DNA from: Prorocentrum cordatum
Lineage: Eukaryota
Reading direction: 5' to 3'
Length of the DNA stretch: 64,000 bases
Assembly: GCA_963575745.1 (NCBI GenBank)
Contig: CAUYUJ010000067.1
Span: forward strand, 1 to 64,000
Shown: piece by piece, positions 2,641-62,265 of the stretch
Layout: every line of letters starts with the position of its first letter
How positions within the stretch are numbered: the stretch's first letter is position 1
Made by a program: the position numbers and the translations under genes
The notes under the pieces: generated by a model
Database searches by the model: none
What the model was told of the DNA's origin: nothing
What the model saw: the letters and a program-made list of their open reading frames with translations, nothing else

Positions 2641-4727
2641 CTTGGCGCTGATTCAAACGAGTGCACTTCCAGTGCGCTTCGTCATTGCGCGTGCTGAATA
2701 GAGCTTCGAGGTTTGATTCCCCTCCCCTACCCCCCTGGGGCGGGCTTTTCCTCCCTGCCTCGTTCTCTGCTTGATTCGTTATTCTACTTCGTAGTCGTGG
2801 AGCGCTTCCTTCTTCTGCTTCGCGATCGCGGGGCGCCTCGCTGTTCTGCTTCACAGTCGTGCTGCGCCCTGTTTTCACCGCCCGCCGCCGCGCGGATGCT
2901 ACCCTCAAGTTGATTGCTGGTTGCTGCTGATAGGGTGTGCCGGCCCATTCGATATCGCATGCTTCCGGGAAGCTCGCGGGGAATTTCTGCCTGGCGCCCC
3001 CTTTGCACGAGGGGTTTAACGGAGACGCGATAGCTTGCACCACATATTCGTGTCCACTGTTTATGACGACCTGTTTGCGCAGTGCTTCTGAAGACATGTT
3101 TGCCCAGCGCGAGTCCGGCTCCAGGGCCATTGCAGATTTTCGAGGCCGCGCCTTTGAACCCCGCTCTGAGTGCCACGTGTTCCACCCCTCCCTCCCTTTC
3201 TCTGCCCTGCATACCCTGTCTCGGCAAGATGAGCTTCGATCCAATTTTTGTCGCAATTCCGTGCGATGCCGACAGTTGTCGCTCGAGGGTGCCATTTGCA
3301 CATCAAGTCCCTCGTCTTCCTCTTCCCCCTCCTTCTCCCCCCCCCATTCCTCTCCTCCTTCCCCCGCGTAGGGTTGACATGCATAACGCAAGGGCCGTTG
3401 ACCGAATGCTTGCCCCGACGGCTGCTCACGAAATGTTTGCCCCTGCGCGTGTACCGTATGCTTTCATCGCGTGGTAGGCTGAGCGAGCTGGGGGGTCCAT
3501 CGCGCTGTCCGCCCCCATCTTCCCCCGCCAAAAATGCCAAGCGCGAGTGCCCCTACGCGCTTGTTGCCGGGAAGTTGCGCTGACTGCTGCCCCGTCGTCG
3601 TCGTCGTCGTCGTCAAGGTCGTCGTCGTCGTCGTCGTCGTCGTCGTCCGCCCCCGTCGGCCAGAACCCGATTGAAATGGGCCCCCGGAACCCTCCCGGGG
3701 TCCGAGCGCACAAGTTTTCCGCGCCGCGTCCGGCCGCGACGAGGAGAGCCGCCAGGGGCCAGAGGATCTCGATCCTCGAGGCTTGAGGCTCGAACCTGGA
3801 CGTCGGTGGCCGTTCGGGATGACTCCGGCGCCCCCGGGACGCAGTTTGTCGGTCCCGATCGATTTCTGACGGCCCTGGGTCCCGAAAGTGGTTCCCGCAG
3901 GCTACGACGCCGGAAGCCCGCCTCGAACTTCGAACCTCAGGGGTCGACGAAAATAGCTGGCGTCATCGGAGACGCGGCCATCTCGTCCGCCACAGCGGCG
4001 GCAGCCCAACTCCACGGGTTTCAGGCGGTGGGCGTGAGCGCGGCCCCCCCGAGCTCAGCCCACGCGCCGCTTCCGCGCGGGCGTCTTTGTAAGATTTGGG
4101 CGTCTTCGGCGCCGGGAACGGAAGGGGGGGTTCGAATCTCGAGGATCGAAGTTCGACGAGCTTTTTGTCGTTTTACGCCTCTGGAAGCCGCTTTCGGGCC
4201 CCGGGATCGTCGAAAATCGATCCATGGTGAAAAACTGCTTCGGAGGGACCCTGGGAAGGGCCCGGGGGCCGATTTTAATTCGATTTCGGTCATCCTGGGA
4301 AGAGGAGGGGGAGGGCGACGACGAGGGCGAGGAGGACGAGGAGGACGAGGAGGGCGAGGGTTGGACATGACTGGGCGCTCCCGTAAGTTGACCCGGGTCG
4401 TTCGAATGTGTTTCGCAAATATTATTGGGAATCTCGTTCAAAGTAAACTCCGACCTCCCACCCCTCCAGCCCCCGCCGCAGCCGCCCGAAGACAAATAAT
4501 TTCAAATTGCGGCCGCGCCCCCAAATTTGAAGCATGCCCCTTTGCGTTGCCCGGGGCCCCCCAGGAATCCCAGGGGCCCCGGCGGATTCTGTTGGTTTGT
4601 GGAGGATTCCTCGAACCTTCCATCCTGGAGGATTCATTCCTGGGCGCTCTCTTGGAGCCGTTTCCAATCAGCGGATGGCGCACCAACCGACGCGCATACG
4701 CGCGCGCGTGGCGCGTGCTCACTACTG
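2641..4727 (+). repeat. Left terminal inverted repeat (~2.1 kb)
   Basis: Reverse complement of 20284-22421 throughout, including an internal (GTC)n tract, with scattered substitutions and a few indels. Confidence 0.9.
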
Positions 4728-13042: not shown

Positions 13043-13915
13043 TATTGCACCACGTAGACTGCACCACATAGACTGCACCACATAGTCTGCATCACATAGC
13101 TTACACCACATATATTGAACCGCGGATATTACACCACATAGCTTCCACCACATATCGTGCACCACATAGATTGCATCACATAGCTTACACCACATCGATT
13201 GCACCGCATAGAGCGCACGCACGATGTAGCTTACACCACGCAAATTGCACGACAGAGATTGCACGCACCACAAAGCCTACACCACATAGATTGCACAACA
13301 TAGGGTGCACGAACCAAGTAGCTTACACCACATAGTTCGCACCACAAATATTGTACGCGTTACTTAACGCACACCACATCTATTGCACCACATAGAGTGC
13401 ACGGAGCACATAGCTTACACCACAGATATTGCATGCACCACATAGCTTACACCACATATTTTGCACCACAACGATTACACGCAGCACATAGCGCTTACCA
13501 CATATATTGCACAACAGAGAGTGCACGCACCACATAGCTTGCACTCATAGATTGCACCACATGAAGTGCACGCACCACATAGCTTGCAGCACAGATATTG
13601 CACCACAGAGATTGCCCGCACCACAAAGCCTACACCACATAGATTGCACCACAGAGGTTGCACGCACCACGTAGCCTATACCACATATATTGCACCACAC
13701 ATATTGCACGCGCCACGTAGCTTACACCACATATATTGGACCGCATAGAGTGCACGCACCACATAGCTTACACCAAATAGATTGCATCACAGAGAATGCA
13801 CGCACCACATAGCTTGAACCATATAGATTGCACCACAGAGGTTGCACGCACCACTAAGGTTACAGCACATATATTGCACCACATGGGGTGCACGCGCTAC
13901 ACACCTCACACCACA
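12828..13915 (+). repeat. CACCACATAG(ATTG/CTTA) ~14 bp minisatellite with (TA)n tract
   Basis: Directly visible; (TA)n at ~12998-13045. Confidence 0.9.
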
Positions 13916-27143: not shown

Positions 27144-27243
27144 TAGAGATAAAGAGAGGGATACTGTAGAGAGAGAAGATGACATAACGAAAGAGAGAGA
27201 GAGAGAGAGAACGATATAGAAAGACAGAGAGAGAGAGAGAGAG
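27144..27243 (+). repeat. Imperfect (AG)n microsatellite
   Basis: Directly visible. Confidence 0.85.
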
Positions 27244-27819
27244 GTTGTGAACTCCAAGTGCTGTTTTTAGAGAGGTGTGTTGGCGGGTCTCTGCCAGGCT
27301 ATGATGTCGGATCAGTTTGCTACGGCGTGTTTAGGGGAATGTATCCGTTGCCGCTACATGTGTCAGCCGAGTACTCGCCCTCAGTTTGCGCGGGTTCTTT
27401 GGAGAATGTATTGGTTCGCGGTCAACACAGGAAAAGTAATCTTACGAACAGTTCACACGGCTTCCCATGTAGGTTCTACGTGGCCCCGACATTTCCCCAG
27501 GACGATCCTGAGCCGCCTCGAGCGATGGCTCCCCCGAGTTCTCACGGAGGCAGCGCGGTGCCCCGGCGTCCCGCTGTGTCTCAAGGAGAAGCTGCATAAA
27601 CATAAGTTTCGGAGGTCCGCGCGGATATCCAGGATCGGCGGAAGGCTCCCCTCCATTCCATGGTGCGCGGAGCGCACCAGGGCTGGCACTGGAGGCGTCG
27701 CCAAGGTTGGTCCCGCGCAGATCCAAGAAGTCCGCGCGGACCGTCCGAAGCTTATGTTTCTACAAAGTTGTTATATTCTTCCGGCGCCTGGGCTCTAGAC
27801 CTCGCAGATGGGTCGGAGT

Positions 27820-31070: not shown

Positions 31071-31116
31071 AAAACACCGAGGCACCCGTGTCGGGCGCAG
31101 GGGGGCTTCGAAATAG

Positions 31117-31119
<3 letters not shown>

Positions 31120-31200
<81 letters not shown>

Positions 31201-31213
31201 GAGAGAGAGAGAG
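31120..31213 (+). repeat. (AG)n tract at the 3' flank of the giant LINE
   Basis: Directly visible. Confidence 0.95.
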
Positions 31214-31581
31214 ATCGGACAAGTAGGCGGACCAGGGTCCGTCCGCGAGGCGCACTGCGGTGCGACAACTCGCATGCACTATTTGCGGCGGTGCAGCCTT
31301 TAGATACGAGGGCGGGCAACAAAAACCCCCTCCCCCGGCGCAGTGCGACAGACGCTACAGACGGCGGACAGACGATGATGATCTCACCTGTCAGACCGCG
31401 TGAGGAAAAAGGCCCCAACAAGAAAGGCGACGTGCTGGCACGTGGCTAGGCGGCTTGGCGGACCGCCTGTTGGGCGCTTGGCCGCTAAGCGGCGCGCAGT
31501 GACGGGGCACCCCCCGCCCCCACGCCCTGACACCGTGGACGCGGAGCCACACGTACACACGGGCAGGCAGAAAGGAGGAGA

Positions 31582-34500
31582 TTAGCGCGGGGCACCGGGT
31601 GGAGCGCCGCGGAACGATGACAACATAGCTTGGATGTTGAGTGACGGCACGGCACCATCGGGCGAGGCCGTGAGCAGCTCGGCGAAGGCTCGCCCAGCAC
31701 TGTGGAGGCGCTGGAGTAGAGGGCCTTGACGAGCTTGGGCGGCGGCGAGGTCCGCGGCGAGAGCTAAGCACCTCTGCTGGAGGGCAGCCATAGCCTGTGA
31801 CAGCTCGGTTTCGCGGTCGGTGAGGGGTGGCTGCTCAGTGCCAGCAGCCGAGGGCCTCGAGACAGAGGCGAGGTCCTCGGTACGCCTGTCCAAATGGTGG
31901 ACTAGCGTAGTGCGGGACCCTGTACGCTGACGTCCGTCCCCCTTGAAGGGTGACTGGAGGGGCTGGCGCGACCCCAGGGCTGGAGCCGCTAGGGCCGCGC
32001 CCCGAGAGGTCAGGGGAGCCGCTTCCTCTCGCTCAGCAACGAAGGAAGCGTGGATGGGGCACGAGGGCCTGTCTGGTTTAGTACCCTGCGGGGGGGCTGA
32101 AGCCGCCCCCGCGGGCTGCCGGCGGTGGGGAGGCGGAGTGGTTTGCGCGGTGGGACCAGTCGTGATGCCGTGCAAGGCCGCTGAGGTCGGTCGCGTAGAA
32201 GGTTGGCGTCTCGGTGGGGCGGCATGGTCGGCAGCGTGTGGTATCGGCGGTGCGTCCTCAATGCCACTCGTTCCTCGGGGGTCGCCCAGGTCATGGTCGG
32301 CGTCTTGGCGGTGGCCGATATCATCGTATGTGGGCGTTATCGCTCTTGGGGACGGAGTCGCAGTAGGGGTCGAGAGGTTTCCCGACGGGGCGGGATTTTC
32401 GCTGGCTGGTCCGTCGTCCAAAGCGTCCGATCCCCCACCGAAGCTGAACAGGTCATCGTCCTGCTCATCAGCGTCTTGAAAAGGAACGGCGTTGTCGTGT
32501 GGGTGCGCTGCCGCACTCAGTGGCGGAGTCGGGGGCGCCGTGCGGGTACCCGACGGGGCAGGGTTGGCGCTGGCTGGCCCGTCGCCTAGGAAGTCCAGGC
32601 CTCCACCAAAGCCGAACGGGTCGTCCTCCTGTTCGTCGAATAACACCCGTTGGGCCTCGGCCCAGAGCTCGTCGGGGTCTTGTGGGATGTCTGGTCCAGC
32701 CGCGGGTGGTGCCTGGTCAGACAGCAGGGGGTTTGGTTCCATTTTGTTTAGTTCCGCAGCTGTAAACCCAGCCCTGCGGTGTGGGAGGGGGAGTGTACGA
32801 TGTCTACGCTCGTAGATGGCGACAGCGACTCCGTGAAGCACGGTCGCTTGGCGATGTCGTGATTTGGCAGCTTCGACGATGTCGTCTGGAAGGTTATGAG
32901 TACGTGCCGCCGCTGTGGCGAGGGCGTCAGCCTGACGATTGAACTCCTCCGCGATGGGCCCGATGAGCCCGAGGTCGATGCCCATGTCGCCCTGGTGGCT
33001 AGCGACTTTCTCGACGCGGAACATGTTTGGCTTGGCCATGACGCATCGGTGGACCTTTTCCCAGAGCTCCACGTGCGTGCCCTGCGGTGGTGAGTGTCCG
33101 TCGATGATCCTTTGGAAACCGTCAACCACCGCCTGGTTGTCCACGAAGACGTGTACAGGCCGTTCGGCACATGCCGTGAGGTGGACAATGGCGAGGGTCT
33201 CCGCAAGCTGTGCGTTCTGCGTGATGCCGTGAACGCGCGCACTGTAGTTCATGCGGTGGTCGATGCCGTAGTAGACGCCGTAGCCCGCTCTTGCAAGCAA
33301 TGGGATGGCTTGGTTGGTGCATGCACCGTCCGTGGCAGCGTAGACCCATGTCCAACCAGTGTCATGGTCAAGGTAGGTGGTGTAGGAGTCCTGGGCTGAA
33401 GCCGCAGGATCTCCCTCAGGTGGGGGCCGCGGTATGGGCTGAGGTAGCGGGTCCCTCGCGAGGTCGGCCTGCAGGTCGAGGAGGGCTGGGTCTTCATCGA
33501 AGAGCCCGCAGTGTCTTGTGTGCGGTGGAAGACGGGCCCACTGCTCGTCACTGATGAGGGTGGTAAGAGGGACTCTTTCTCGGGCCCAGCACTTGCAGTC
33601 GCGAACAGTGTGCTCCTGAGTTTCCTCTTCCTCGTCGCAGTAACGGCAGATGGGGCTGGGGTCAGCGGACGTGTTTGATCGAGATCGTCGCTGTTGGGTG
33701 TGGTCCCCGCCCGACAGGTAGTTGAGGAGGAGCGCCAGCTGCCATGCGTTGCATTTGGCTGCTCCTTTCGTGCGGGCGAGCCACGTGCTGGCGAAAAGGT
33801 CGAGGCCCTGTCTGACCGAAGCCAGGTGTCCAAGGTCATGACGCCGCGGCTTGATTTTTCTCAGAAAGGCTCTGCGTTGTGAGGCGCGCAGCATGTGAAG
33901 GAAGGCGTTTTGGGGAAGGTTCAGCCAACTGATCTGACAGCCCCAGTCGTCGTACATGATGCCAAATGTGGGCCAGGTCCAACGGAGCTGCTGAAGCGTC
34001 TGGACAAGTCGTCCAACAGGTCCTCCCCCGAAAAGGGTCTGGACATGGTGTTGGAGATCCCTGACGAGACCGCAAAGAGTGGCGTCGCGGTTGACCTGTC
34101 GCCGCAGACACAGGAAGACTTCACGCTGCATAATGGCGTCAATCTCCAGGGCGTGTCCTGGGACGCACACGGCCATGAGAGTCCAAAACTCGACCCACCT
34201 GTTTCCCTTGGGGCGGATAGCCGCCTTAAGGGCATGGTTGTAGGCAGTTTTGACGGGGCCTGATGGGGCTTGAATGTCAGTGCCCGTGGTACAGACGCTG
34301 GCAGCAAGGGAGCGGGCGTGCCGCGCCTTAATACGCATCGGTGATGGGAGCTTGCCAATGCGCGGCAGGCGACTAGTCGCCCTGCGAACACGAGCGTCGG
34401 CGGTGGCCGTGAGGTTAAGCGCGGCTGGAGCCGGCGCTGCCTCGGCGTTGATGTAACTTCCGACGAGCTTAAAGGAGTCGACCACGCGTAAGGGCCGTTC

Positions 34501-37412
34501 CGCCAAAGTGAGCTGGGTAACGGCGGTGTGAAGCTCGTCAGTGAGCGCCCACCCCGCCACTTTTCCAGGATGAATGCGTTGACCCGAAAATCGATCAAAC
34601 TTGGCGGTTTCATCAAGAGATTTCTGCAACTCGGGCGCGGTGTGGGTAGTGGAGTTGCTGTCGTCAACAAAGGTAGTGCTGAGTGATCGCGGAACGTATC
34701 GATGCTGTCTCTTGGTCCATACACACATGAGCAGCTTAATGTCGTCCAGGGACCAAGAGCTTCCCTGGAGGTGACCGTTTGTCCTGGCCAGTTCCTTAGA
34801 GTACGCACCGTTCATGCGGATGTAGCGTTTGTGGCGACTGTAGAAGTTTCTGCGGACAGTAACGATGTCTTGGGGACACCCCGCGTGAAGCGCAAGGTTA
34901 AGGCATATGTCCGTGATGAGATAGTCGAAACACTTCTGTCGGTCCAGGGCAGCTCCAGCTAAGGGAAGGAGTAAGGCCCTGGCGTGTTCGATGCGCAGGG
35001 CAAGAGAAGTGCTGACGTCCCCAATGGTAGCTTTGGGAACGGCGCCAAAACTCGTGGCGTGGGTCCATCCTTTCCGCCAGTCCGTGAGGCTGCGGTAAGC
35101 TGGCGCTTCCCACGCATACATCCAAACGGAAAGCACCGAGAGAAGTCGTTGGTCCGTTGGGAGTTCGCCTCGGCCTTTTCGGAGGCACGGGTTTGGCACG
35201 TGGAGGAGGGGTTCTGGGATGGTGCCAGTGCGTTGCATAGCTCGTAGGACGCTGGCGAAGAGGCGAAGAATGTCGTCGGGTAGCTCCTTTGCCTCCTTAG
35301 TAGTCCAGCCGTCCAGTCCCCCCGCGCGGCGCGGTGAACGGGTGCGAATGAAGTGGATGAGTTGGTCGTCGGTGAGGTGGAAAGGGGTAGCTGGTGATGG
35401 CGTAGGCAGCTCCTGTCGGTACTCGTCGTAGAAGTCGGCCCACGTCGGCATGGCTTCGGCGTCATGTCCCGCACGTGCACGGTACCTGCCCAAGATGGGC
35501 TCCCAGGTGTCGACCATGAGCTTCAGCATGTCCTTGGTGTTAGCAACAATGGCGTTGGCAGGAAGGATGTCGGGGACTTGCGCAGGTGGTGGTTCACGAG
35601 TGTGGTCTTCGTCGCTGTCCGTGTCGGGCGAACTACCGTCGCTGGGGCTGAAGCCGCCAGCTTCGGTGTCAGCGTCGCTGTCGTCCGTGCAAGCTTCGTC
35701 AGGTTTAAAGGCGTTGGTGTCGCAGTGGAGTTGCGTATCGTCAGGAGTGGTAGGCGTGCGGAGATACGCCGTGGGCGAGCTGTCAGCAGCCCGTGCGTAT
35801 ATGGCCGCCTTTCGCCCGCTTGGCTCACGGACGCCCTCAGCCCATATCCTGATGCGTTCAGCTTTGGCACGGTTCGCGCGTCGCGCCAGCTCCAAGTCGA
35901 GGTGTTGGATCAAAACGTCAAGGTGCTCTCCGTGCGGCACTGGCTCGTCGGGGGACCAGGCCTCGGGGAAGTCTAGGAGAACCGTGGGGCGCAGCTTGTG
36001 GCATAAGAGGCGGGCCGCGGCCCACGTGCAGTCGATGCGCTGCGCGAGGTACGGCGGGATGGCACGGCAATCCAAATGATGGTGCTGTCCGATGAAACGG
36101 AGCTCGCAGAGTTGCCGATGGAGCTTGCGCAGTCGGTTCATGTGTATCGTGGAAGCTCCGTAGGTGGGGAAGGCGCGGGGGACAACTGGTCGATCTTCGA
36201 ACGTGGGCGTGAGCCCGTGCATGGTGGGGGGCTTCTTTTTTGGGTGGTCGGACGGTGGAGGTGGCAGGTCGCGCAGACGGGTGAGATGGTACTCATGACT
36301 GGCCTCGTTAGCCAGGGCGAACATGCGCTCCACGTCGTCTCGTGTGTCGGCCTGCTCCATGCGGTCCTGATATCGCTCAGCGATGAGGGTCCCTAGTGCC
36401 TGCAGCTCGTGACCCTCATGAGCTCCATCGTCGGGCGGATAGGGCGTGGGGGCAAGAAGACGTCGGGCCGTATGGTCGAGGCGACTGAGGTCAAGCGTGA
36501 CCTGCAGGCCAACGTGAGACTTCGCAGGCAAGTCGCGAAGGTAACAGAAGTCGGTGACAAGGGATCGCGCCGCTTGGTTGGCAATGATATAGTCGATGCG
36601 CGAAGTGCGGGGGCACTTGGTGACGCGGTCCCAGTCAGGGATATTGCCGTAAGTGTGCATGGTGTGGTCTGGTGTGCCCTCAGCAACGTTGAACCATCCG
36701 TGCTGCAACATGTGCAGAAGGTGTGGATTGTCGTCAATGTTCGTATTGGCGTCCATGCAGATGAAGTAAGGGGCTGAGCCGACCCTAGCGGCGGCGCAGT
36801 CAGCGAGCCGAAAAAGAGCTGTGCTGTCTCCTCCAGCAATCCCGTAGAGGCTCGCTATGTAGATCCCCGCGGGCCCGTGGTTGTTTCGTCGCCGCCTGCG
36901 GCGGTGTTGAGTGCAGAGCGGGAGAAAGACCTCGTGCCATCTTTTCTTGGCCTTGAGGGCGGCGATACAGGGCGCATTGTCGTCGACAGTGGAGTCGACA
37001 ATGGCATCCTTAGAGAGGATGGCGACCCCTCCCGAGGCGCCAGTGCTGCCCACAACGGTGTGGTCTGTGCCGCCGTGGGCAGCTCTGCGCTGGGCTCGCG
37101 CCAGATCAGGTCAGGTCCAAGACTGGCGTGGTATCCTCCGTGGAGTGGATTGGCGGCGCTGGTAGCGATGGCTTGCCTAGTCGGCTTGGCATGTCGGGTC
37201 TCCTGCAGTGCTATGACTGCGGCGTTGTGGTCGACACCAAGGGCGGTGATGGTTGGCCAATTCGCTGAGAGACTGGTGATGTTAAGGCTGACGAGGTGTA
37301 TGGAGCGACCTGGCCCGTCTCCATCGGTGGAACTGGGGTTTGCACGCCCCGCACGGTGAAGGTCAGCTTGACCCTCGCCCAGGTAGGAGGCTTGGCCACA
37401 GTAGGAGCTCAT
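31582..37412 (-). CDS. LINE-A pol: APE endonuclease - reverse transcriptase - CCHC zinc knuckle - RNase H (one frameshift at ~37106-37115)
   Basis: APE: SLNITSL, IALQETRH, GGVAIL, SLYG, ICMDAN, SRIDYIIAN, SH. RT: AGGLDGW, DQRLLSVL, LDRQKCFD, NGHLQGSSWS, FVDD, HPGK. CCHC: CRYCDEEEETQEHTVRDC. RNase H: ATDGAC, AGYGVY, NAQLAE, FVDN, KVASH, NRQADALA. 1823 aa are uninterrupted from 37053. The start at ATG 37412 is tentative because the frame is open further upstream. Confidence 0.92.
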
Positions 37413-37540
37413 GGCGTTCCTATGGATTAGCTTGACCGGGGCTGAAGCCGCCGTCAGGCCAGAAATATAGGCGGGACACGGTCGGCACTGCGCCAGGGGG
37501 GGTTCATAAATGTCAGTATAAATGTTACGAAAATTCCTCC

Positions 37541-40500
37541 TCACTCCAGTACCGTAGGGGACGAGGGGAGGAGAGGTGAGACGGCAGCAGAGGGGGAGGG
37601 AGGCGACTCCTCGATCCGTCCTGCCGAGCACAAAAACAAAAGCGAACCAGCGGCGGCGGCTAGGCGCGGCGGCGGCACAACGCACGCGCATGTACTGCGC
37701 ACGCGACACCGCTGGTCCCTCCTGCGGTGGCGCGCCCGCCCCGTCAGTATCTTGATGAGCAGCATCTGGTGGAACAGCTCCAGCAGCACGGTCGGAGGCC
37801 TGGCGCTGGGCCTCGTCCATGCCCGCTGCCGTGAGGCCCACGTTGCGGACAGGGCTGATTCCCCGCGGGGCCGCCGCTGCCGCGGCAGCAGCTGGGTGGC
37901 GGGGGCTCCGCCCCGACTCTGAGGTGAGAGCGGTGAGCCCCCGCCGAAACCCGCCACAAGGTTCTTGACACGGTACTTGTTCTTGAACGGGTCGAAGGTT
38001 GGCGCCTCGTCGATGGGGACGATCACGCGGGTGAGCAGCGGCGGCTCGTGGTCCGTGGACGGCGTCGGCGAGAGGTCGACCTGGCCAGGATCAATGACGC
38101 TGGCTCCGAAACGTGGCACCACTTCGGGGGCTCGGCCATCGGCCTGAGTCTCGCGAGGCGGCGAGCTCGTGGAGCTCCCTGGGGCCTTGCGTGAACTGTG
38201 GCGGCTGCAGGTCCTGCTGCGCGGGACGCGCCCGCCCGTGTGGCGGTCGCGTGGCGAGGTCGCCTGGGCATTAGCGCGCTCGGAATCCGCCCTGCTCGGG
38301 GATCGGATCGGCGCCGCGCAGGGTGATGGGCTGGGCTGGCGAGAGGCGCTTATGCCGCCTTCCGCCGTGGCTGTGGCCTGGTCGGGGTCGACCGCGTCGG
38401 GGCGGGGGCTGACGTGGTGGGCGCTTCCCTCGCTGTGCCGCGGGGAGGCGCTGTGATGCGCCTGGATGTGCGTGAGGACGAGCGGGGTAAGCGGCTGCCT
38501 CTCCCGCTCAGGTGGGGCAGGTTTTGCCTGGGCAGGGCGCAGTGCTGCAGCTACGTTTGGCGGGGGCGTGTGCTGGCGAGGTTGCCGAGCGCGCACGTTC
38601 GCATCACGCCATCCTTCGGGGCGCCCAGTCCTGCCACGGTTTGTTGCAGCCCCCTGGGCTGAAGCCGCAGGGGTTATCACTGCGGGCTGGTTGCTGGAGG
38701 AGCCATCCTGTCGGCCTGAGTAAAGGCCCCAGGCGCGCGTGGACCCTGGCACTGGCGAGGTGGCCCTTAGGGCCTGCACGGGTGCACGCGGGTAGCCGAT
38801 GACCGCTGGGTGTACCCTGGCATGGGGGGCGTGGCCGTAGCTGGAGGCGGCTGCTCCAGCAGCCGCGGGCCTGGCGCCTATGGGGCCACGGTAGTAGGCG
38901 GCAACCCCGTCGTAGGCCGTGTTGCCGCCTGTCGGGACTCGCGCAGGGGAGCGGTAGCGTGGCGTGCCGTGCTGTCCTGCGTCACGTTGGTCCCGCTGCT
39001 GGATGCGCTGCTGGTGCTGTTGGTGACGCTGCCAGTCGGCTCTCGAGAGGGGACGGGTGTCGGGGAGGATGGTGGGCACGTCGGGCCGCTGCCAGCCCCG
39101 ATAAACGTGCTCGAAGGCGTGGTCAGGGTAGGTCCTCCCCTACGGGTGAGTATCGCCGCACATGCTCCATGTAGTCGATGTTCTGCGGCTCAGCGATCGC
39201 CGTGATGTTGACGGCTCGCTGGTGCGCTGGTCCATAGAGGCAGAAGCTACCACGGTTGCTGCGGTCGTGGTTTAGCTCGGCTTCGGTCGTGGCACGGCTC
39301 ACCATGGCGTCGCAGAGTCGCATGTCGTAGTCGAGGGCTTGAGGCCCAGGACCACCCTCGGCGTCCCAGTACAGTACCACATCTCGCCAGCGGGTGCGGG
39401 TAATGTGGATGCGCTCGGCGATCAACTCGCAGACGGTCCTGACCGTGACACGATCCCTGTACATGTTAGTAATGGCTAGGGAGTAGGGTCGGCGGACCGT
39501 CTTGTTGAAGGTGAGTTCCTCCTTGAGGGCCTGGTGGGGACTGAAGAGCACGAAGCCTTCCCTCCAAAGCGGTTGGTCGGGGGAAGGTTCTTCGGGCATC
39601 CCCGTTCCTGTGAATCCAGGTGGCCGCCTTGTGCCGTCAGGCAGTCCCTGCCTGGGGACGCGCCGCGGCTGCGGTGGGAAGTACCATTGACCCTGGTAGC
39701 CTGCTTGCCCTGGTTGTGGAGGTTCCCCCCCGGGGCCTGAAGGCGCTCGGGGGGGTTCCTTGAGGTCGTGAAGGGCTGGCGCGTTGCCGAATTGGCGGGC
39801 AAGGATGTGCGGCGGCATCCCTGTGGCACGGACGTCGAGCAGGTTGTGTGGCCTGGGGGGGTGGGGGCACCTGCTGGACAGGCAGCATGTGTCGGAGTCC
39901 CTGTTGTTGGTGCTGTATGCACACGTCCAACTGTTGCACGAGTAGTCCGTGGACCAGTCCATGAGTGTACGCAGTCCGCTGCGGCCGCAGTCTGGGCACG
40001 TTGGTTGGCCCGAGGTGCCGAGCTGCGTGTTGCGGCGAGCCGCACAGTACTGACAGCATTGGAATCGACACTGTAGGCAAGACCAGCGTCCTGGTAGAGG
40101 CGGGAGCGCATGCTCATTTGTGCCTGGGTCGTCTGGGTGGGGTCTCGGGCGGTCCCACAAGGGCCAGACGTCAGCAAACCAGGATTGGCCTGTAGTGCGG
40201 ACAACCTCGGCGGGGAGGCGTGCGTCCTCGGCATGGCACCTGATCCACTGGGGCCCCATGTCCGCTGGTACCATGACGGTGCGCCAGGAGTCGTCCGCTT
40301 TGACGTGGACTTGGGTCGGTGCCCAGAGCTTAGTAGTGGTGTCGCCGTGGTCGTGGTGGAGGATGACCCAGCCGTCACGCCCGTCCACCGCAGGGTCAGT
40401 AACGCGGTGGCCCATGACTGTCGTCCCCCACGGTAAGTAGGCACCATCGTGGTGATCACCAGGGTCGAGCCAGACCTCGATGCCAGGGGCATTGACACGG

Positions 40501-43500
40501 GACCGCACATCACGAACGTGGTAGGCGAGGACGTGGTAGGCAGTCGGCTCCTCCTCCGTCACAATGTGCTCCCACGTCTCGATGCCGCTGTTGTCTGAGG
40601 TGGAGTTCCCGTCACTCTGTCGTGACGAGCGAGAGGCAGATCGTCGTGGACGGGCACGGCCTCGGGCGAGGGCGGCGGCCGCGCTGATGAGGGAAGGCGT
40701 ACGGCGTTCGTCGACTCCAGATGACGTCGATGAGCGGTCTGGACTGTACGCTAAGGCTGTGCCTGACTTGTACGTGCGAGGTGGGCCCGACGCGGCCCCA
40801 GGGCTGGAGCCGCTGGGGCGCGACCCGCGTGCGTCAGGGTGCCCCCGCACGGGGACAGCTTGCAAGCCAGTGTACACCAGGTCGATGAGTGGTTTCGGGT
40901 CCAGCTGGAGTATGTGAAGCGAGACGCGTGGGCGGGGCTGGTTAGGGTCATCCCTGGTGGCTGCTTCCGTGTCGTAGTGCTGTTTGGCCCATGCTCGCGC
41001 TGCCTCTGGCGCGTATAGCGCCTGCGGCGGTGGCCATGCTGCCGCGATGGCTGGTCTGCGCCTGGTGCTAGCTTCCTGGTCGTGAGCTTCAGCCGCCTCA
41101 CGGAGATCTGGATGATCGTAGCCAGCGATGTGGAGGGCGTGCGCGCAGTCGCCCATGCCATAGGCGTGTGGAAGGGCACGGCACCTGGAAGCAGCTTCTG
41201 TGGGGGCGCACCAGTCCATGCGGATGAGGAGGCTCAGGACCCGAGGGTAAATGAGGCGCGCTCCGTGGGCCTCCCCTTTCACGTAGTTGTGCCTGTTTTC
41301 CCCGCGCGGTGGTTGGGTGGCCTCGCACATCCAGAGTGCGATGGGTCCCCACGCGAGGGTGTCATCTTCGAGACTGTAAGGCGGGTGGGGCGGCATTGCG
41401 TACCACGCGGCCAGCGAAGGGTGCACGCTCGCGTACGTGCGGCCAACGTTGGTGCCAGTTCGGCCCTTCGCTTCACGGCGGGGGCCTGGCAAGAGGTGCC
41501 CTCCACTGGCAGCAAGACGGGCCGCAAGGTCGCCGCGGGTCCCATGCCAGAAGACAGTGGGCGCGTCGGTGATGGGTTGGCGGAGGTCCCACGTGAGGTA
41601 TGGGAAGATTGTCTCGCCCGAGTTCCCGCCCGAGTCTTCCAGCACCCAAGTGAGGCGGTTCGGTGGCCTCTGCATGATGTCCGTCCACGGCCCCAGCGCT
41701 TGGAGTGTTGGATCATGAGTGAATCGAGGATGGTCGTGGAGTCGTAGAGCGTCTTTGATGTCCTCTGTAGACACGCCACTGTTCCCTAGCGCAAAGCCGT
41801 TTTGATACAGGGCGTTAAGTATGCTCTTCGGCGGCTCGGGGACCGCTGGGTCGCGCTGGATGGTGTTGCGTAAGTTGCGTGTCGGTGGCTTGAGGGCAGT
41901 GTAAGGCGTACCAGGGCCTGAAGGCGCCTGGGGCCTGTCGGGGGATGCATAGCGTGCTCGCCGTCGTGGTGGTTGGGTGTCCGCGTCGGGGGATGAACCA
42001 CGAGCGTCAGCGTGTCGGAAGATAGACCACGGGCTATCATGGGTGCGCTCACGCGTTTCCCTTGCCTCGGTGTCGCTGCCGTGTGCTGTGGCGTCCTCGT
42101 TAGTCGGTGGGTTACCGAATGTTGGGCCGCTCTTGGAGCCGTCTCGTGGAGTCGGGCTGGTCGATCTTGGTGTGACAGACGAGGCTCGCGATACGGCGGC
42201 GGTGACTTCGACGATGGCGGCGGTGGTGGCGGTGGTGACGTCGGCGACTGCGGCGGCAACTGCTGCGGCGTAGTGTTCCTGTAGCAGCGGATGTCGGAGT
42301 GCGTGCACATGCTGGTCGTCGTGTTCGTCGGCGAGCGTGCACGGCATTTTGTATGTGACCTCGTCCCTCGGCCTCCTGCTCGGTTGGCAACAGCGGAGGC
42401 ACCACTGGGCAGTGGATGAGTCCAGGGCCCGCGCACAGATGCGGGCTCCAACGTGTCCGACAGCTCCCTGGGCAAGAAGTTTGGCACCGACGAGTAGAAG
42501 ACCACACACGACTCCACCCGTGGCAATAGCCCCTAGCTTGCCGCTGGCCCATTTAAGGACACCCCCGAGGCCGACCCCGACTGCAGTGGCTCCGCCCGAG
42601 ACGCTATCTCTGAGTTTGACGCTGGTCCATTTGAGAGTGGCCCTCAATGTGGACGTGACATTGTATGTCGTTTTGCGTCGGGGTGTGGTGGACACCGATG
42701 GGCCTGGTGCCGTCGCTTGGCGTCGTCGTCGTTGTCGGTAGCTGGGGTCTCGGCTCGGTGTCGGCAAGTACCCGTCGATCTGGTCCTTGTACGGCATTGC
42801 TATCGCGATGACGTACGTGGCCACCAAGAGGCAGATGAGGCAGCCACAATGTCGTGATGCCGCTGCGCTGTGCTGGGGCTCGTGGGGACCGCTGGCATCT
42901 GGGTACTCATCATCGATGGGATCGTTGTCGATGTCGGCCTGCCCGTGGTCAGTGGCACTGAAGTTGGAGTCAGTCACGCTGTCACGGTGCACGGAGGTGA
43001 AGGGCGTGGTGCTGCCACCTGCGGTATGGGGATGTCCAGGTCTAGCCAGTGGTGCAGCGGGGCTGAAGCCGCCACTGCACGGGCTGGCATGAGCTGGCGA
43101 TGCTGTGGAATGGCTTGGCACGTCAGCGGCAGTGACGCCTTCAGCGTCGTTGAGCCGAGCGCTGGGGTCGGCCTGAGCTGAGGTGTGGGGCGGACTGCTT
43201 TGCAACGAGGTGTGCCCAAAGTAGGGTTCACTGTCGCGGTCACTCTGGGCCGAGTTGCCTGGTGGTATCGTGCCGTCTCGATCCTGGGTATCGATGCCGT
43301 CCTGGCTATCTTCCGACGCGTGGAACGAGTCCATGGATGTGTTGCCGATGTCGCTGGCCGCGATGTGCTGAAGCAGCCATGATACAGGGTCATCTGCGGC
43401 CTGATCGGTGCCGTCCATCGGCGCCGCGGCGAGCTCCGCCTCGACGAGCGGCAGCATGTCTGGCGGTTGGTGCAGGATCACGTCGGCGAGGTACGCCATG

Positions 43501-44377
43501 GCGTCTTGGTCGGGTGGAGGGAGGCCTCTTGGCAGCAGAGCATGGGCCCGTGAGAGGTATGGCGGCAAAGGTGCCGTGAAAGCCTCAGGGCCGACGAGAG
43601 TGGCACGAGCGCCCTGGTATTCCAGAAGGAGGCCAAAGTAGCGGGTGGCGTACTCGCGGCTGCTCTGGATACGAGTGAGGTTGCGGTTGATGCGCTGCCT
43701 GTCGGGGCCCGCTCTGTGCCAGATGTCCTCGCACATGTCGACCGCGGTGCGCTGACGCAGGGCGTCGGTTGTGTCCTCAGACTCCTCCTGGAAGAGGTGA
43801 TCGTACTGTGGCAGATGGAGCGTCGCCAGGATGTATGGGACGCAGTCCTCGAGCCATGCCCAGAACATGTCCTGGTGTCCTCACCTGGTGCCCACGCCGC
43901 AGCACACGGTATGAGCCGGGCGCGGATCATCATCAGGTGCCAGAAAGCAGGGTCCTCCTCAGGTTCGCCCCTATCGCACAGGGGAGTGGTGAGACCCGTA
44001 GGGCGATAGCGGGGCACAACAGCGGGGCTGAAGCCGCCACTGTGTGTCTGGCCAATGCCGCACGGACCCGCGGCAACGGTGCCGTTCACGATCGGGTCCA
44101 AAATGGTGCAGTGATCGTACTTGTAGATGCTGTCATCGTAGAGGTAGAAAAGGGTCCCACGTTCAGCGTGTCGCAGGAGAAACTCACCTCCATGCTGGGG
44201 CGCACCGCCTGAAGACGGGTGTGCTCCAGCGAGCGAGGGGAGGGCCAGGCTGCAGGCAAGGCGCCACATGATGGCGAGGCCTGGCGGGCGGCGCGAGCGA
44301 TGAGCCAAAAGCTGCATGTCAGCACGCATCCTTAGATACCCCTGCATGCTCATGTACATTGCAACAAACACACCCAC
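37541..44377 (-). CDS. LINE-A accessory coding region (segments 43478-44377, 39123-43868, 37541-39079 joined by frameshifts); PARP-like ART motifs, putative SH3-like, Cys-rich and Ubl-like segments, hydrophobic segments
   Basis: 1581 aa uninterrupted ORF with non-repetitive sequence; FWHGT...GRTYAS...AAWYA motif series. The neighbouring ORFs join it by small indels. Confidence 0.65.
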
Positions 44378-44530
44378 AGCAAGATGACAGGTGTCCCTAC
44401 ACCAGATAGCTTGCTCGTGCTGCTGCCAAAACTGACATGATATAACAAGAAAGAGATACGGGGCAAAGTGAGAAGAGATGCCTCTGAAGGCGCTTCCTCG
44501 GAGGGCTGAGGCAGGCTCTCTGAGGCACCT

Positions 44531-47101
44531 TCAATAGGGTTCCTGAGTGGCCCGACCCTTGTCTTTGCCTTTGTCAGCCCCTGGGGGCCCCGTCCCTGGG
44601 GTGACCTGGCCTGGCTGGTCAATCCACCCGCAGACAGCCACGGGATCGGCAACTGATGCAGCTTCCTCCTTTTTGGTTTCGAGGGTGGCCACCTGTGGCA
44701 GGTGGATGGTGCCCCCCGTGAGGTGCCCGAGGAGGGCCTGGATGTCGCCACGCAGTGCAGCAGCTTCGGTAGTTGCCGTCTGTTGCTGAGTGACGACGGT
44801 GGCAAGCCCTCGTTCCAAACCTGAAACGTGCTCCGTGAGTGTGGCCTGGGATGAGAGAACGCCCGCAAGCTGGACCTGCATGTTATCCACCGTGTTGGCA
44901 AGCAGCTCGTGCTGTTGTTCCATGTGTTGGATGCGGGTCGTGGCGGCATCTGACAGTTTAGGGGCCGTAGCGAAGCGTTCGCCGAGGGTGTTCAGTTCGC
45001 GAGATGCCACGCTGAATTCGTCCCCTGATGAGAGGATCTCGACGTCGTCATCGTCGCCTGGTACCTCGGCGGCTGTGGCAACGTCCCCTTCCGTGTGGCC
45101 CCCGCCTTCAGCCGCCACCGTGCCAGGTTGCGGGTCATGCCCACCTGGTCCTTGGACGGCCGTCTGCTCGGCAGCTCCATCCGTGCCGTGCGGGGGTGCA
45201 GAGGAGCTGCGGCCTGGGGCGCCGTGTGATCTTGCGTGCGGCGTGGCGTCGCGTTTCCCGCTGGAGGATCGGTGGCGCTTGGCTAGAGGCTCCTCCTTGG
45301 GGATCGGGAGCGGTGCGACGCCCTTGCCTTTGGGCGTGGCAGTCATGAGGTCGTGGAGGTAAGGGCTCTGGGCCGCTTTGGTTAGGAGTGTGCCCGTGGC
45401 GGGGCTGAAGCCGCCACCACGGGCTGGCGGCGTCACAGGCTCTGTGATAGTGGTAGGGGTGACAATGGTAACGTTGTCCCTCTTCGGCACCACCTCAGCC
45501 AACGGGGCCTCGGTGATGCTCCACGGGATGGGGCACCCTGCGACCTGTACCGTATATGTGGGTGGGGGACGATGGGCGCGCACTAAGGCAAACTGAGCCG
45601 AAGTGGCTGGGTCCCAGGCGGTGTGGTAGACCTCACAGTCCCATTTGACGGACGGGCCCGTGAGAGTCTTAGCAAGCTGGGTCAGCGTGGCGTGGCGTGC
45701 CGCAATGCCAGTGATGCGGTATCGCGTCTTGGCGAGGGTGGCTTCACAGCCACGGATGCTGACGGCAGCAGCCTTGGCGGCGTCTGACCCTCGTGCAACA
45801 CGGATCCCCAATAAGCCTGACTTGCCGTGCCTGACGACTCCTAGGGCCTTGAAGTCCACCGACTTCTGGAACGCATCTGCCATCGTGATGGGCTGGTCCT
45901 CAGGGAACCACACGGTCTGGTACTTGTCTGCAGTGGGCTCGTCTGCACCTACGTTGCTGAGGTCGTAGGTGGCGCCGAGTTGCCCTGAACCCGCCAAGAC
46001 CTTGTCAACCGCTTGAAGACTGACGCCGAAGGTGGCAGCCAGGGACCTCTTTCCGACGCCCGATCCATACCTGCCTAGGCTTTTGCAGGGTTCGAGGATG
46101 GTGACGGCTTTAAAGTTGCCGTGGAAGAGGGCCTTGAAGGTGTCCTGGAGCTGACTATCAAGCTCCTGGCGGCGAGCGTCTTTCTTGGACTCCCTGTGCT
46201 TTTGGTTTTGGCGCGCCTTGTCCTGTGGAGCGGTGTCCTTTCGGAAAGGACCCTTGGCGCGTGGACCACCGTTCACGGGGGCACCTCCCGAGAACTGATC
46301 CTCGAAGGCCTGATGCATGGAGGGGACTGCGGCGATGGCTTCGGTTTCATGTATGGTCACCCGAATCCAGCATACGTGGTCGGCAGGATCGATGGTGGCG
46401 ACGGCAACTTTTTCCGTGCAGGCGACTTCCTTGGTGCCCAGCTGGTACACGGTCACGGGGACGTGCGTGTGGACCACTTTGGGCGCCTTGGGGTGGCGCT
46501 TCAGCACGGGGACGGCGAGCTCGGTACCGACGTAGTTATCGTTTTTTGGGCCCATGACAGCAATCGCAAGCTGACCCGTGGTACGCTTACCCTGCTCGAG
46601 ATGGTGCTGCAGCAGCCGTTCACCGCTCTCGTAGTCGTGGAGGCTGATGCTGGGCTTGTACGTCTTGCCGTCATCGAGTGATGTGGGTTCGGCCAGGACT
46701 GGGACCTTCCAGAAGGCCGGGTCCAAGGCAATGAATTGGGCGTCCGCAGCCTGAAGACGTGCGGACGCAGCTGGTGGGTAGGGTGTGTCACCACCACTGC
46801 GCTTAGGCTTGCTGCGCTGGTGGTGATCCAGCGTGTAGCTGATCTGGTTGGCGGCACACATGCGGATCAAGGCACTGCCGAGCTTCTTTGTGTTGGTCTT
46901 GTGCATGTCGTACGTGGCCTGCAGCTCGTCCGCGTTCAGCTCGGCGAGCCCGTTGTATGCGGCCGTGGGGCGGTCAGACCCCGCTTGCTTGAAAGCTGCA
47001 ATGCAGTCCTGTTTGCGTTGGAGGAAAGACCCTTCAGCTGCAGGACGTGAGCTCGGCGGCTGCTTGGAAGAGCGACGGCGCTCCGGCTTGGCGGGGGCCA
47101 T
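44531..47101 (-). CDS. LINE-A ORF1 (~856 aa, putative nucleic-acid chaperone with C-terminal coiled coil)
   Basis: Intact ORF from ATG 47101 (MAPAKPERRR), 70 nt from the element's 5' end. Heptad-like segment IQHMEQQHELLANTVDNMQVQL...LRGDIQALL. First ORF upstream of pol. Confidence 0.75.
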   Translation of the reverse strand: MAPAKPERRRSSKQPPSSRPAAEGSFLQRKQDCIAAFKQAGSDRPTAAYNGLAELNADELQATYDMHKTNTKKLGSALIRMCAANQISYTLDHHQRSKPKRSGGDTPYPPAASARLQAADAQFIALDPAFWKVPVLAEPTSLDDGKTYKPSISLHDYESGERLLQHHLEQGKRTTGQLAIAVMGPKNDNYVGTELAVPVLKRHPKAPKVVHTHVPVTVYQLGTKEVACTEKVAVATIDPADHVCWIRVTIHETEAIAAVPSMHQAFEDQFSGGAPVNGGPRAKGPFRKDTAPQDKARQNQKHRESKKDARRQELDSQLQDTFKALFHGNFKAVTILEPCKSLGRYGSGVGKRSLAATFGVSLQAVDKVLAGSGQLGATYDLSNVGADEPTADKYQTVWFPEDQPITMADAFQKSVDFKALGVVRHGKSGLLGIRVARGSDAAKAAAVSIRGCEATLAKTRYRITGIAARHATLTQLAKTLTGPSVKWDCEVYHTAWDPATSAQFALVRAHRPPPTYTVQVAGCPIPWSITEAPLAEVVPKRDNVTIVTPTTITEPVTPPARGGGFSPATGTLLTKAAQSPYLHDLMTATPKGKGVAPLPIPKEEPLAKRHRSSSGKRDATPHARSHGAPGRSSSAPPHGTDGAAEQTAVQGPGGHDPQPGTVAAEGGGHTEGDVATAAEVPGDDDDVEILSSGDEFSVASRELNTLGERFATAPKLSDAATTRIQHMEQQHELLANTVDNMQVQLAGVLSSQATLTEHVSGLERGLATVVTQQQTATTEAAALRGDIQALLGHLTGGTIHLPQVATLETKKEEAASVADPVAVCGWIDQPGQVTPGTGPPGADKGKDKGRATQEPY

Positions 47102-47168
47102 TGCGGCGGCCACTCTGGTGGGGGGGGATAAGAGGTGACGCGAATCAGTAGGGTCCTGCTGGGACCCC

Positions 47169-47171
<3 letters not shown>

Positions 47172-47229
<58 letters not shown>
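47172..47229 (+). repeat. (AG)n tract at the 5' flank of the giant LINE
   Basis: Directly visible. Confidence 0.95.

Positions 47230-47233
<4 letters not shown>

Positions 47234-54271: not shown

Positions 54272-54331
<60 letters not shown>

Positions 54332-57275: not shown

Positions 57276-57342
<67 letters not shown>
57216..57342 (+). repeat. G-run, (TA)n and (GA)n microsatellites
   Basis: Directly visible. Confidence 0.9.
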
Positions 57343-61980: not shown

Positions 61981-62096
61981 CGCGGCGTCGGCGTCTGCGT
62001 CGGCGTCGGCGTCGGCGTTGGCGTCGGCGTCGGCGTCGGCGTCGGCGTTGGCGTCGGCGTTGGCGTCGGCGTCGGCGTGTGCGTCGTCGTCGACGT

Positions 62097-62128
<32 letters not shown>

Positions 62129-62265
62129 TCGGCGTCTGCGTCGTCGTCGACGTCGGCGTCAGCGTCGGCGTCGGCGTCTGCGTCGACGTCGGCGTCGGCG
62201 TCGGCGTCGGCTTCGGCGTCGGCGTCGGCTTCGGGGTCGGCGTCGGCGTCGGCCTCGGCTTCGTC
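61925..62265 (+). repeat. (GTC)n and (GGCGTC)n microsatellites
   Basis: Directly visible. Confidence 0.9.

Follow-up and report, generated by a model that had tools for sequence, protein, structure and literature searches.

The analysed window is a stretch of 64,000 nucleotides (nt) from Prorocentrum cordatum (assembly GCA_963575745.1, contig CAUYUJ010000067.1, positions 1 to 64,000). On its minus strand it harbours a high-copy, divergent non-long-terminal-repeat (non-LTR) retrotransposon of approximately 16 kb with a (CT)n tail. The element carries four long open reading frames (ORFs), and fifteen short hairpins, each with a bulged C and a U(U/C)CA (UYCA) loop, are dispersed along its sense strand. 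The coordinates of all features are collected in Table 1, and the hairpins are the subject of this analysis.

Table 1. The non-LTR retrotransposon and its hairpins (bit scores were obtained with covariance model R1, which was built from the 15 sites; RT, reverse transcriptase)
Feature	Position	Strand	Description
Whole element	31120..47170	-	approximately 16-kb non-LTR retrotransposon; from end sequences and depth
(CT)n 3' tail	31120..31215	-	from sequence and self-comparison
3'-terminal hairpin	31227..31246	-	GCGGAC-N8-GTCCGC, just upstream of the tail; other motif than the dispersed hairpins; same sequence in L006
pol ORF	31582..37110	-	1842 amino acids (aa) stop to stop; endonuclease-like N-terminus, RT (FVDD), zf-RVT-like and RNase H-like regions
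Accessory ORF C	37541..39139	-	532 aa; no recognised family
Accessory ORF B	39123..43880	-	1585 aa; no recognised family
ORF A	44531..47101	-	ORF1-like, approximately 857 aa from ATG; long C-terminal helix
Hairpin 1	46741..46767	-	CGUCCGCA-C-GUC-UUCA-GGC-UGCGGACG; 29.6 bits; identical in L002
Hairpin 2	45392..45424	-	lower stem 11 bp, C, GGC-UUCA-GCC; 33.5 bits
Hairpin 3	44194..44230	-	core GUC-UUCA-GGC; long, interrupted lower stem; 27.7 bits
Hairpin 4	44020..44042	-	CAGUGG-C-GGC-UUCA-GCC-CCGCUG; 34.1 bits
Hairpin 5	43052..43080	-	23 nt in common with hairpin 4; 34.1 bits
Hairpin 6	41911..41931	-	CCAGG-C-GCC-UUCA-GGC-CCUGG; 31.9 bits; identical in L003
Hairpin 7	40796..40818	-	loop UCCA; 33.4 bits
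Hairpin 8	39725..39755	-	core GCC-UUCA-GGC; one A.C mismatch in lower stem; 31.0 bits
Hairpin 9	38651..38673	-	35.3 bits
Hairpin 10	37433..37456	-	one 3'-side bulge in lower stem; 28.5 bits
Hairpin 11	35641..35661	-	GCUGG-C-GGC-UUCA-GCC-CCAGC; 32.2 bits; compensatory change in L001/L005, decayed in L004
Hairpin 12	34418..34438	-	loop UCCA; 28.5 bits
Hairpin 13	33389..33409	-	31.2 bits
Hairpin 14	32088..32112	-	34.7 bits
Hairpin 15	31972..31994	-	loop UCCA; lower stem extends to 13 bp (31965-32001); 32.4 bits

The pol protein itself produced only noise-level Pfam matches (RVT_1, E 0.18; zf-RVT, E 0.16). It could be aligned over approximately 880 aa with proteins bearing Exo_endo_phos, RVT_1 (down to 1.9e-11), zf-RVT, and RNase_H domains, which identifies the element as a divergent non-LTR retrotransposon. 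No endonuclease was matched by Pfam in the window protein; Exo_endo_phos was present in the relatives P0025 and P0002, and the N-terminal region was conserved with P0001 and L009. Self-comparison of the element revealed only (CT)n runs and no terminal repeats. Summed contig depth in sequencing run X2 reached approximately 10^4 inside the element compared to 15–33 in the flanks, with the change located at the bins starting at 31077 and 47233, and this excess indicates a high-copy family. By a rough measure, depth was also approximately flat from the 3' to the 5' end in all four runs, and the copies in the contigs of these runs were 80–99% alike. Sequencing data for the element could be found in 20 data sets from 15 studies, with no RNA data set among those listed. 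The initial annotation had described a giant long interspersed nuclear element (LINE) at this locus, and its length, the FVDD motif, relatives bearing RT and RNase_H, the (CT)n tail, and the depth all agree with that description.

Single-base indels were observed in other copies at the junctions of the long ORFs (37106/37107, 37894, 39134/39136, and 43875/43876), accounting for 9–30% of the depth in X2 and for up to all of the depth at 43876 in runs X13 and X8. With these indels, the frames between 44530 and 31582 would become a single ORF of approximately 4,300 codons. The present copy may carry frameshifts; alternatively, frameshifting may be employed by the family. If the frames are joined in this way, the three hairpins that lie outside the four long ORFs are probably also located in coding sequence.

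Folding of the minus strand confirmed the hairpins at all 15 intervals, each having the form of a lower stem, a bulged C, 3 bp, a U(U/C)CA loop, 3 bp, and the complement of the lower stem. The minimum free energies ranged from -9.7 to -28.8 kcal/mol. The lower stem was unbroken for at least 4 bp in 13 of the 15 hairpins, and a single bulge or mismatch was present in the lower stems of hairpins 8 and 10. The upper helix consisted of GGC/GCC in eleven hairpins, GCC/GGC in two, and GUC/GGC in two, while the loop was UUCA in twelve and UCCA in three. Eight positions were invariant, namely the bulged C, a G and a C on each side of the upper helix, and the U, C, and A of the loop. A search of the 15 sites for an extended motif revealed no conserved bases beyond positions -5 to +7 around the loop, which, together with the eight invariant positions, fits a compact protein-recognition surface. 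The regions 31956–32015 and 40780–40839, which bear hairpins 15 and 7, were 82% identical over 61 nt, and hairpins 4 and 5 had 23 identical nt in common; these shared stretches indicate that some hairpins arose as copies of another.

The core CGGCTYCAGCC occurred 11 times in the window, always on the minus strand and between 31978 and 45413, compared to an expectation of 0.13 (at most one in 100 shuffles). The relaxed core CGBCTYCAGVC occurred 17 times against 1.42 expected; 15 of these occurrences were the hairpins of Table 1, and the remaining two (12782 and 45103) were on the plus strand with upper-stem triplets unable to pair as written. A scan for structure alone over both strands (128 kb) yielded 13 strict minus-strand hairpins, all within 31965–46768, and elsewhere only one weak hairpin at 4624–4644 on the plus strand. 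When model R1 was run over both strands of the 64 kb with filters off, the 15 sites scored 27.7–35.3 bits and the next match 13.2 bits (E approximately 1). Outside the element, the remaining 48 kb of the window lacked the motif, even where other elements ending in (CT)n occur. A generic hairpin census showed that the other recurrent hairpin cores of the window (CCTCTTGGG, GGTGTAAGCT, and GCGTCGGCGT) were part of repeats, tandem or interspersed, that have no relation to the element. Those cores were located at 49–1562, 14093, and 23753 on the plus strand, at 13112–13733 and 61666 on the minus strand, and at 61996–62231 on the plus strand.

Enrichment was also evaluated within the four long ORFs using 500 synonymous-codon shuffles, which preserve the proteins and the codon usage. 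The core appeared on average 0.71 times per shuffle (maximum 4) compared to 12 observed occurrences, and strict hairpins 0.26 times (maximum 2) compared to 11. Of the 12 sites inside these ORFs, seven had the loop U at the third codon position, four at the first, and one at the second; the other three sites lie outside. As a result, one nucleotide motif is translated as GFSP, as AASA/APAPA/APSGP, and as RLQ across the three phases.

Covariation of the lower stems was evident from 93.7% paired cells compared to 63.5% in shuffles and 32–57% in slid controls. The covariation score of 0.739 was reached by none of 500 shuffles, which gave 0.159, and changes were present on both sides in 7 of 9 stem pairs. 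Each sense-strand occurrence of the core had complementary flanks. In unrelated viral contigs, 2 of 119 copies of the 14-mer GCGGCTTCAGCCCC were flanked by a lower stem of 5 bp or longer, compared to 5 of 6 in the element. The choice of sites was therefore not circular, as the core alone does not bring a stem with it. The three codon phases, the codon-preserving shuffles, and the covariation together place the constraint on the nucleic acid rather than on the protein. On these points the initial annotation held: its hairpins are confined to the element, their stems vary in sequence and still pair, and they are read in different frames.

The gaps between successive hairpins were 1346, 1196, 181, 965, 1145, 1114, 1067, 1078, 1217, 1794, 1223, 1029, 1299, and 117 nt, with a coefficient of variation (CV) of 0.41; random placements were equally even with a frequency of 2.7e-4. 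Eleven of the 14 gaps (965–1346 nt) fell between 950 and 1350 nt, a count matched by none of 200,000 random placements, although these bounds were set post hoc; a ratio-window version of the test gave 0 of 50,000. Merging the two doublets into single sites reduced the CV to 0.17 (0 of 100,000). A spacing of 1.1–1.3 kb, as originally proposed, thus describes 11 of the 14 gaps but not the two close doublets or the single 1.8-kb gap.

Conservation of the hairpins by position was assessed in same-family DNA, which comprised one contaminant contig in genome G001 and three more pieces from that genome. Three of the four contigs covering a site (L002, L003, and L005) retained the hairpin. It was unchanged in L002 (site 46755) and L003 (site 41922). 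In L001/L005, which is 88% identical, the lower stem at site 35652 had changed from GCUGG/CCAGC to GCCGG/CCGGC, a compensatory replacement of U-A by C-G. None of the variant places between copies fell in hairpins among the 40 considered out of approximately 2,290, which is uninformative, since approximately one was expected.

For protein relatives, retention of the hairpin was read from the peptides alone. Relatives of pol with identities of 76% and 67% still had the peptide GGFSP within a linker that varies greatly, and in a pol relative at 86% identity the change of AAPAPAA to AAPASAA corresponds to a loop change from UCCA to UUCA. Relatives of ORF A at 85, 70, and 56% identity kept GGG(F/S)SP, where F to S corresponds to UUCA to UCCA. 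The same relatives kept SARLQ(A/T/P)AD, in which the third Arg-codon base faces G, A, or C according to whether A, T, or P is encoded. In a relative of ORF B at 63% identity, APGRLQTPGG occupied the linker where the window has SGGFSPAAP, and this peptide is compatible with a lower stem of 6 bp or more in another reading frame.

Sister families were represented by L009 (55% aa identity), L010 (62%), L011 (74%), and L012 (82%, RT core), and none of them contained a match to the model above 10.2 bits. In L009, gaps of 11 and 5 residues lay exactly over two hairpin peptides, and a 6-residue gap lay over a third in P0001. The absence from sister families and the linker gaps over the hairpins indicate that the array characterises this family together with its closer relatives and was built into linkers that vary. 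A search of viral contigs with the pol profile returned no relative, and 146 other genomes of the order of G001 yielded only a (CT)n-tail match. Metagenome contigs provided five loci, of which four were usable, and all four were sister-family fragments without the motif.

Two further observations were made in the sister families. At nt ~517–540 of L010, the site of hairpin 11, the peptide APSGP of the GCC-UUCA-GGC variant is present, encoded by the synonymous codons GCC CCC TCC GGC CCC, and no hairpin is formed. In L009, three hairpins had perfect 8-bp stems and loops containing CAA, and they occupied three codon phases (nt 1103–1122, 1249–1267, and 3002–3020); none of 1000 synonymous-codon shuffles reached three, with the caveat that the loop was picked after seeing the data. 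In L011 only the first of these hairpins was kept, and the second was broken. The CAA hairpins possibly represent a family-specific hairpin type.

The hairpins were compared with known RNA signals. The coat-protein operators of MS2, Qbeta, and PP7 are built along the same lines: one unpaired base projects from the 5' side of a short hairpin, and above it a brief upper helix carries a small loop in which certain bases are fixed. The MS2-type operator has a bulged A, 2 bp above the bulge, and an ANYA loop. In contrast to that operator as it is generally described, the present hairpins have a bulged C in all 15 cases, 3 bp above it, and a UYCA loop, and they occur in 15 copies. The likeness to MS2 drawn in the initial annotation thus extends to the architecture of bulge, short helix, and loop, but not to the identity of the bulged base or of the loop. 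No coat-protein homologue was found by Pfam searches of ORFs A–C and PDB sequence searches of ORFs A and B. The iron-responsive element likewise bulges a C from its 5' strand, beneath a short upper helix whose loop has fixed bases; this helix measures 5 bp, and the loop reads CAGUGN. Rfam covariance models revealed no iron-responsive element, histone stem-loop, or other hairpin family above noise; the sole match at E up to 5 was mir-598 on the plus strand at 43062–43148, with 28.2 bits compared to a gathering score of 69.

In single-stranded RNA (ssRNA) viruses (MS2, STNV, picornaviruses, and the HBV pregenome), dispersed packaging signals have been proposed to bind particle proteins cooperatively (PMC6281560). 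There, as here, many stem-loops on one RNA have a shared loop motif and differing stems, and lie partly in coding sequence (PMC6281560). In contrast to those signals, the present carrier is a non-LTR retrotransposon with no capsid protein recognisable in ORFs A–C by Pfam and PDB sequence searches, and the array is far more uniform (eight invariant positions) and nearly regular in spacing, with binding being putative here. In a Drosophila LINE, the I factor, a single bulged stem-loop in the coding sequence, the ILS, is bound by the host Egl-BicD; it is longer, with helices of at least 6 bp, bulges on the 3' strand, and recognition of shape over sequence (PMC13186709). The array differs from it in having 15 short copies, fixed bases, and a bulged C on the 5' strand. 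Eel UnaL2, a 'stringent' LINE, requires in cis a conserved hairpin in its RNA (PMC1636434); that hairpin is single and located in the 3' tail, where reverse transcription starts. The UYCA hairpins, unlike that of UnaL2, are spread through the ORFs at least 770 nt upstream of the tail, and the element has a separate hairpin at 31227–31246. As this 3'-terminal hairpin has another motif, the dispersed hairpins are unlikely to serve as the start of reverse transcription. No description of a hairpin array in LINEs was found in open-access text; literature on a green-alga genome mentioned repeat totals and a 16-kb retroelement insert and nothing on hairpins. The cis-acting hairpins known from LINEs, those of UnaL2 and of the I factor, each occur singly.

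Taken together, these results identify the hairpins, with good confidence, as a selected nucleic-acid element, and the interpretation given in the initial annotation is partly supported, as far as a nucleic-acid-level signal array in the element is concerned. The 15 hairpins would act as cis-acting structures on the sense-strand RNA of the 16-kb element, each presenting one small recognition surface on top of a stem of arbitrary sequence. This surface would consist of the bulged C, the G-C pair below the 3-bp upper helix, the C-G pair closing the loop, and the U-Y-C-A loop itself. The hairpins may thereby offer recurring docking points for a single protein that recognises both sequence and shape and is probably a product of the element, and a spacing of approximately 1.1 kb would keep every part of the RNA within approximately 600 nt of a bound protein. 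Such a protein could nucleate the ribonucleoprotein or hold it together; docking could thereby label the RNA as belonging to the element and keep it protected or organised while it is reverse transcribed.

That RNA is the molecule that folds, that a protein binds it, and that binding has this effect are steps which we infer. Four features, namely the compact surface, the specificity for strand and element, the even spacing, and the retention under divergence, argue for docking sites of one reader and suggest that selection acts on coverage along the entire RNA. Six G.U pairs, two of which are in the 3-bp upper helix, favour the sense strand as the one that folds. Binding of the RNA by a probably element-encoded protein which assembles or protects the ribonucleoprotein is accordingly put forward as a tentative preference. 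Possible but doubtful is a further step, a virus-like multi-site 'address code' in which the element's protein reads identical, evenly spaced tags and so recognises, coats, and holds together the 16-kb RNA; cis-preference would then result from sequence-specific assembly in addition to co-translational proximity. Related families may use different tags, such as the CAA-loop hairpins of L009.

LINE proteins have to pick their own RNA, and very long elements have to be copied whole; a natural element appears here to solve at least one of these problems through a signal that is simple, repeated, and mutable, with 15 sites and eight fixed bases. If a specific pair of protein and hairpin exists, it would provide a new orthogonal RNA tag comparable to MS2 or PP7. 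Even with another function, a regular array of covarying hairpins in coding sequence is a clear example of a second code lying over the protein code.

Several observations weigh against this interpretation. Part of the hairpin similarity is due to descent, as paralogous copies are present. Only one compensatory change between copies could be seen at the DNA level, the other conservation being read from peptides, for which the back-translation test has a background of approximately one compatible site per 850 aa; positions rather than counts therefore carry weight. SARLQ.AD adjoins a conserved protein segment and may be conserved at the protein level. In L004 the site had decayed, with a GUCA loop and a C.C mismatch, which is expected of dead copies and is uninformative. 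Such elements can do without the motif, since sister families at 55–82% pol identity lack it. The searches of the element's proteins brought up no binding partner: Pfam searches of ORFs A, B, and C revealed nothing above noise, and no RNA-binding or capsid-like domain was recognised. PDB sequence searches with ORF B and an ORF A profile returned nothing, or coiled-coil-like matches to the C-terminal helix of ORF A, and the AlphaFold model of ORF A (from a four-sequence alignment) was unusable with a pLDDT of 35. Finally, two hairpins were more stable on the antisense strand, and the mean stabilities were close (-16.3 kcal/mol for sense and -15.7 kcal/mol for antisense).

Instead of an element-encoded protein, a host factor may be recruited to the very long intronless transcript, for its export, localisation, or stability, for protection against premature 3'-end processing, or for evasion of silencing. 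The same structural evidence applies to such a factor, and even spacing would allow it to cover the RNA. The I-factor ILS bound by Egl-BicD offers a precedent of a bulged stem-loop in LINE coding sequence (PMC13186709), and no RNA-binding domain encoded by the element was recognised in the Pfam and PDB sequence searches. However, a signal of general use to the host ought to be more widespread, while the motif is missing from the other 48 kb, including (CT)n-tailed elements, and from the sister fragments, although this is a small sample; no Rfam family was matched either. Because this absence favours an element-specific partner, a host factor is considered unlikely.

The functional form of the hairpins could also be single-stranded DNA (ssDNA), either first-strand cDNA, in which they would fold as GGC-TGAA-GCC and bulge a G, or the displaced sense strand. 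They would then serve, for example, as pause, re-priming, second-strand, or template-jump sites during target-primed reverse transcription of the 16-kb copy. The nearly equal stability of the antisense folds is compatible with such a role, as are the RNase H-like region of the element and the flat depth, which suggests many long copies. In addition, 6 of 13 contig joints fell within 9 nt of, or inside, the low-coordinate edge of a hairpin and could be template jumps, but the joint sides are short (21–35 nt), and cross-matching between similar hairpins is the most likely cause. Moreover, the U.G pair in the 3-bp upper helix of two hairpins becomes a C.A mismatch on the antisense strand, and to our knowledge no LINE uses ssDNA sites of this kind, which counts against the proposal. 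A role as ssDNA is therefore regarded as rather improbable. The hairpin-edge joints were located at 45398, 35639, 38645, 44011, 44012, and 44193 (within 31568–45398 and others), and one further contig joint removes hairpin 15.

The array could have no function at all and be a by-product of internal copy-and-paste of a short palindromic module, through gene conversion or template switching, inherited from one master. The paralogous hairpins (61 nt at 82% identity; 23 shared nt) are in line with this origin, as is the coincidence of hairpins with indels relative to sister families that have none. However, most lower stems are unrelated in sequence and still pair, and such an origin explains neither the even spacing, nor the compensatory change in the 88% identical copy, nor the hairpin-compatible peptides kept to 56–63% protein identity, once in another frame. 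We consider it very unlikely.

Alternatively, the hairpins might slow ribosomes at linkers between the domains of a giant polyprotein and so aid co-translational folding. Twelve of the 15 hairpins are indeed inside the four long ORFs, in variable linkers rich in P, G, S, and A, and the other three are in frames that would be joined by indels of other copies. Pausing, however, depends on stability; it does not require that the bulged C and the closing pairs be invariant or that the UYCA loop be fixed. The stabilities also vary widely, from -9.7 to -28.8 kcal/mol, and this role is considered most improbable. A peptide motif used by the proteins, such as GGFSP (encoded in pol as well as in ORFs A and B, and retained by relatives), with the hairpin being incidental, can practically be dismissed, since one nucleotide motif gives different peptides in three phases, its flanks pair, and synonymous-codon shuffles leave 0.26 strict hairpins compared to 11.

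Two simpler accounts of the hairpin sequences were rejected. A peptide repeat was discarded on the basis of the three codon phases and the loss of hairpins under codon shuffling. In-frame mini-insertions were discarded because most hairpin lengths are not multiples of 3.

The surroundings of the element were also analysed. Its 5' end directly follows the (CT)n of a different element (47171–47231), and contig G001:C329 (L002/L006) joins a tail, through (CT)n, to a 5' end, all from the same family. From these junctions, the elements appear to insert into (CT)n tails, forming head-to-tail arrays. Further (CT)n runs are located at 27168–27244, 54272–54330, and 57293–57342.

Differences between the copies were strand-asymmetric in all four runs, with approximately 400 A>G compared to 175 T>C and approximately 310 G>A compared to 115 C>T on the plus strand; the GC skew of the element was +0.14 to +0.16, and the asymmetry was not normalised for composition. 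In one of the protein relatives, the pol relative P0006 (2068 aa), the RT and RNase H are preceded by a domain of the C-5 cytosine DNA methylase type (PF00145, 5.4e-14). A protein of 70 aa (P0161) from the eukaryote collection, the source label of which is a green-alga genus, was 91% identical to residues 736–805 of ORF B.

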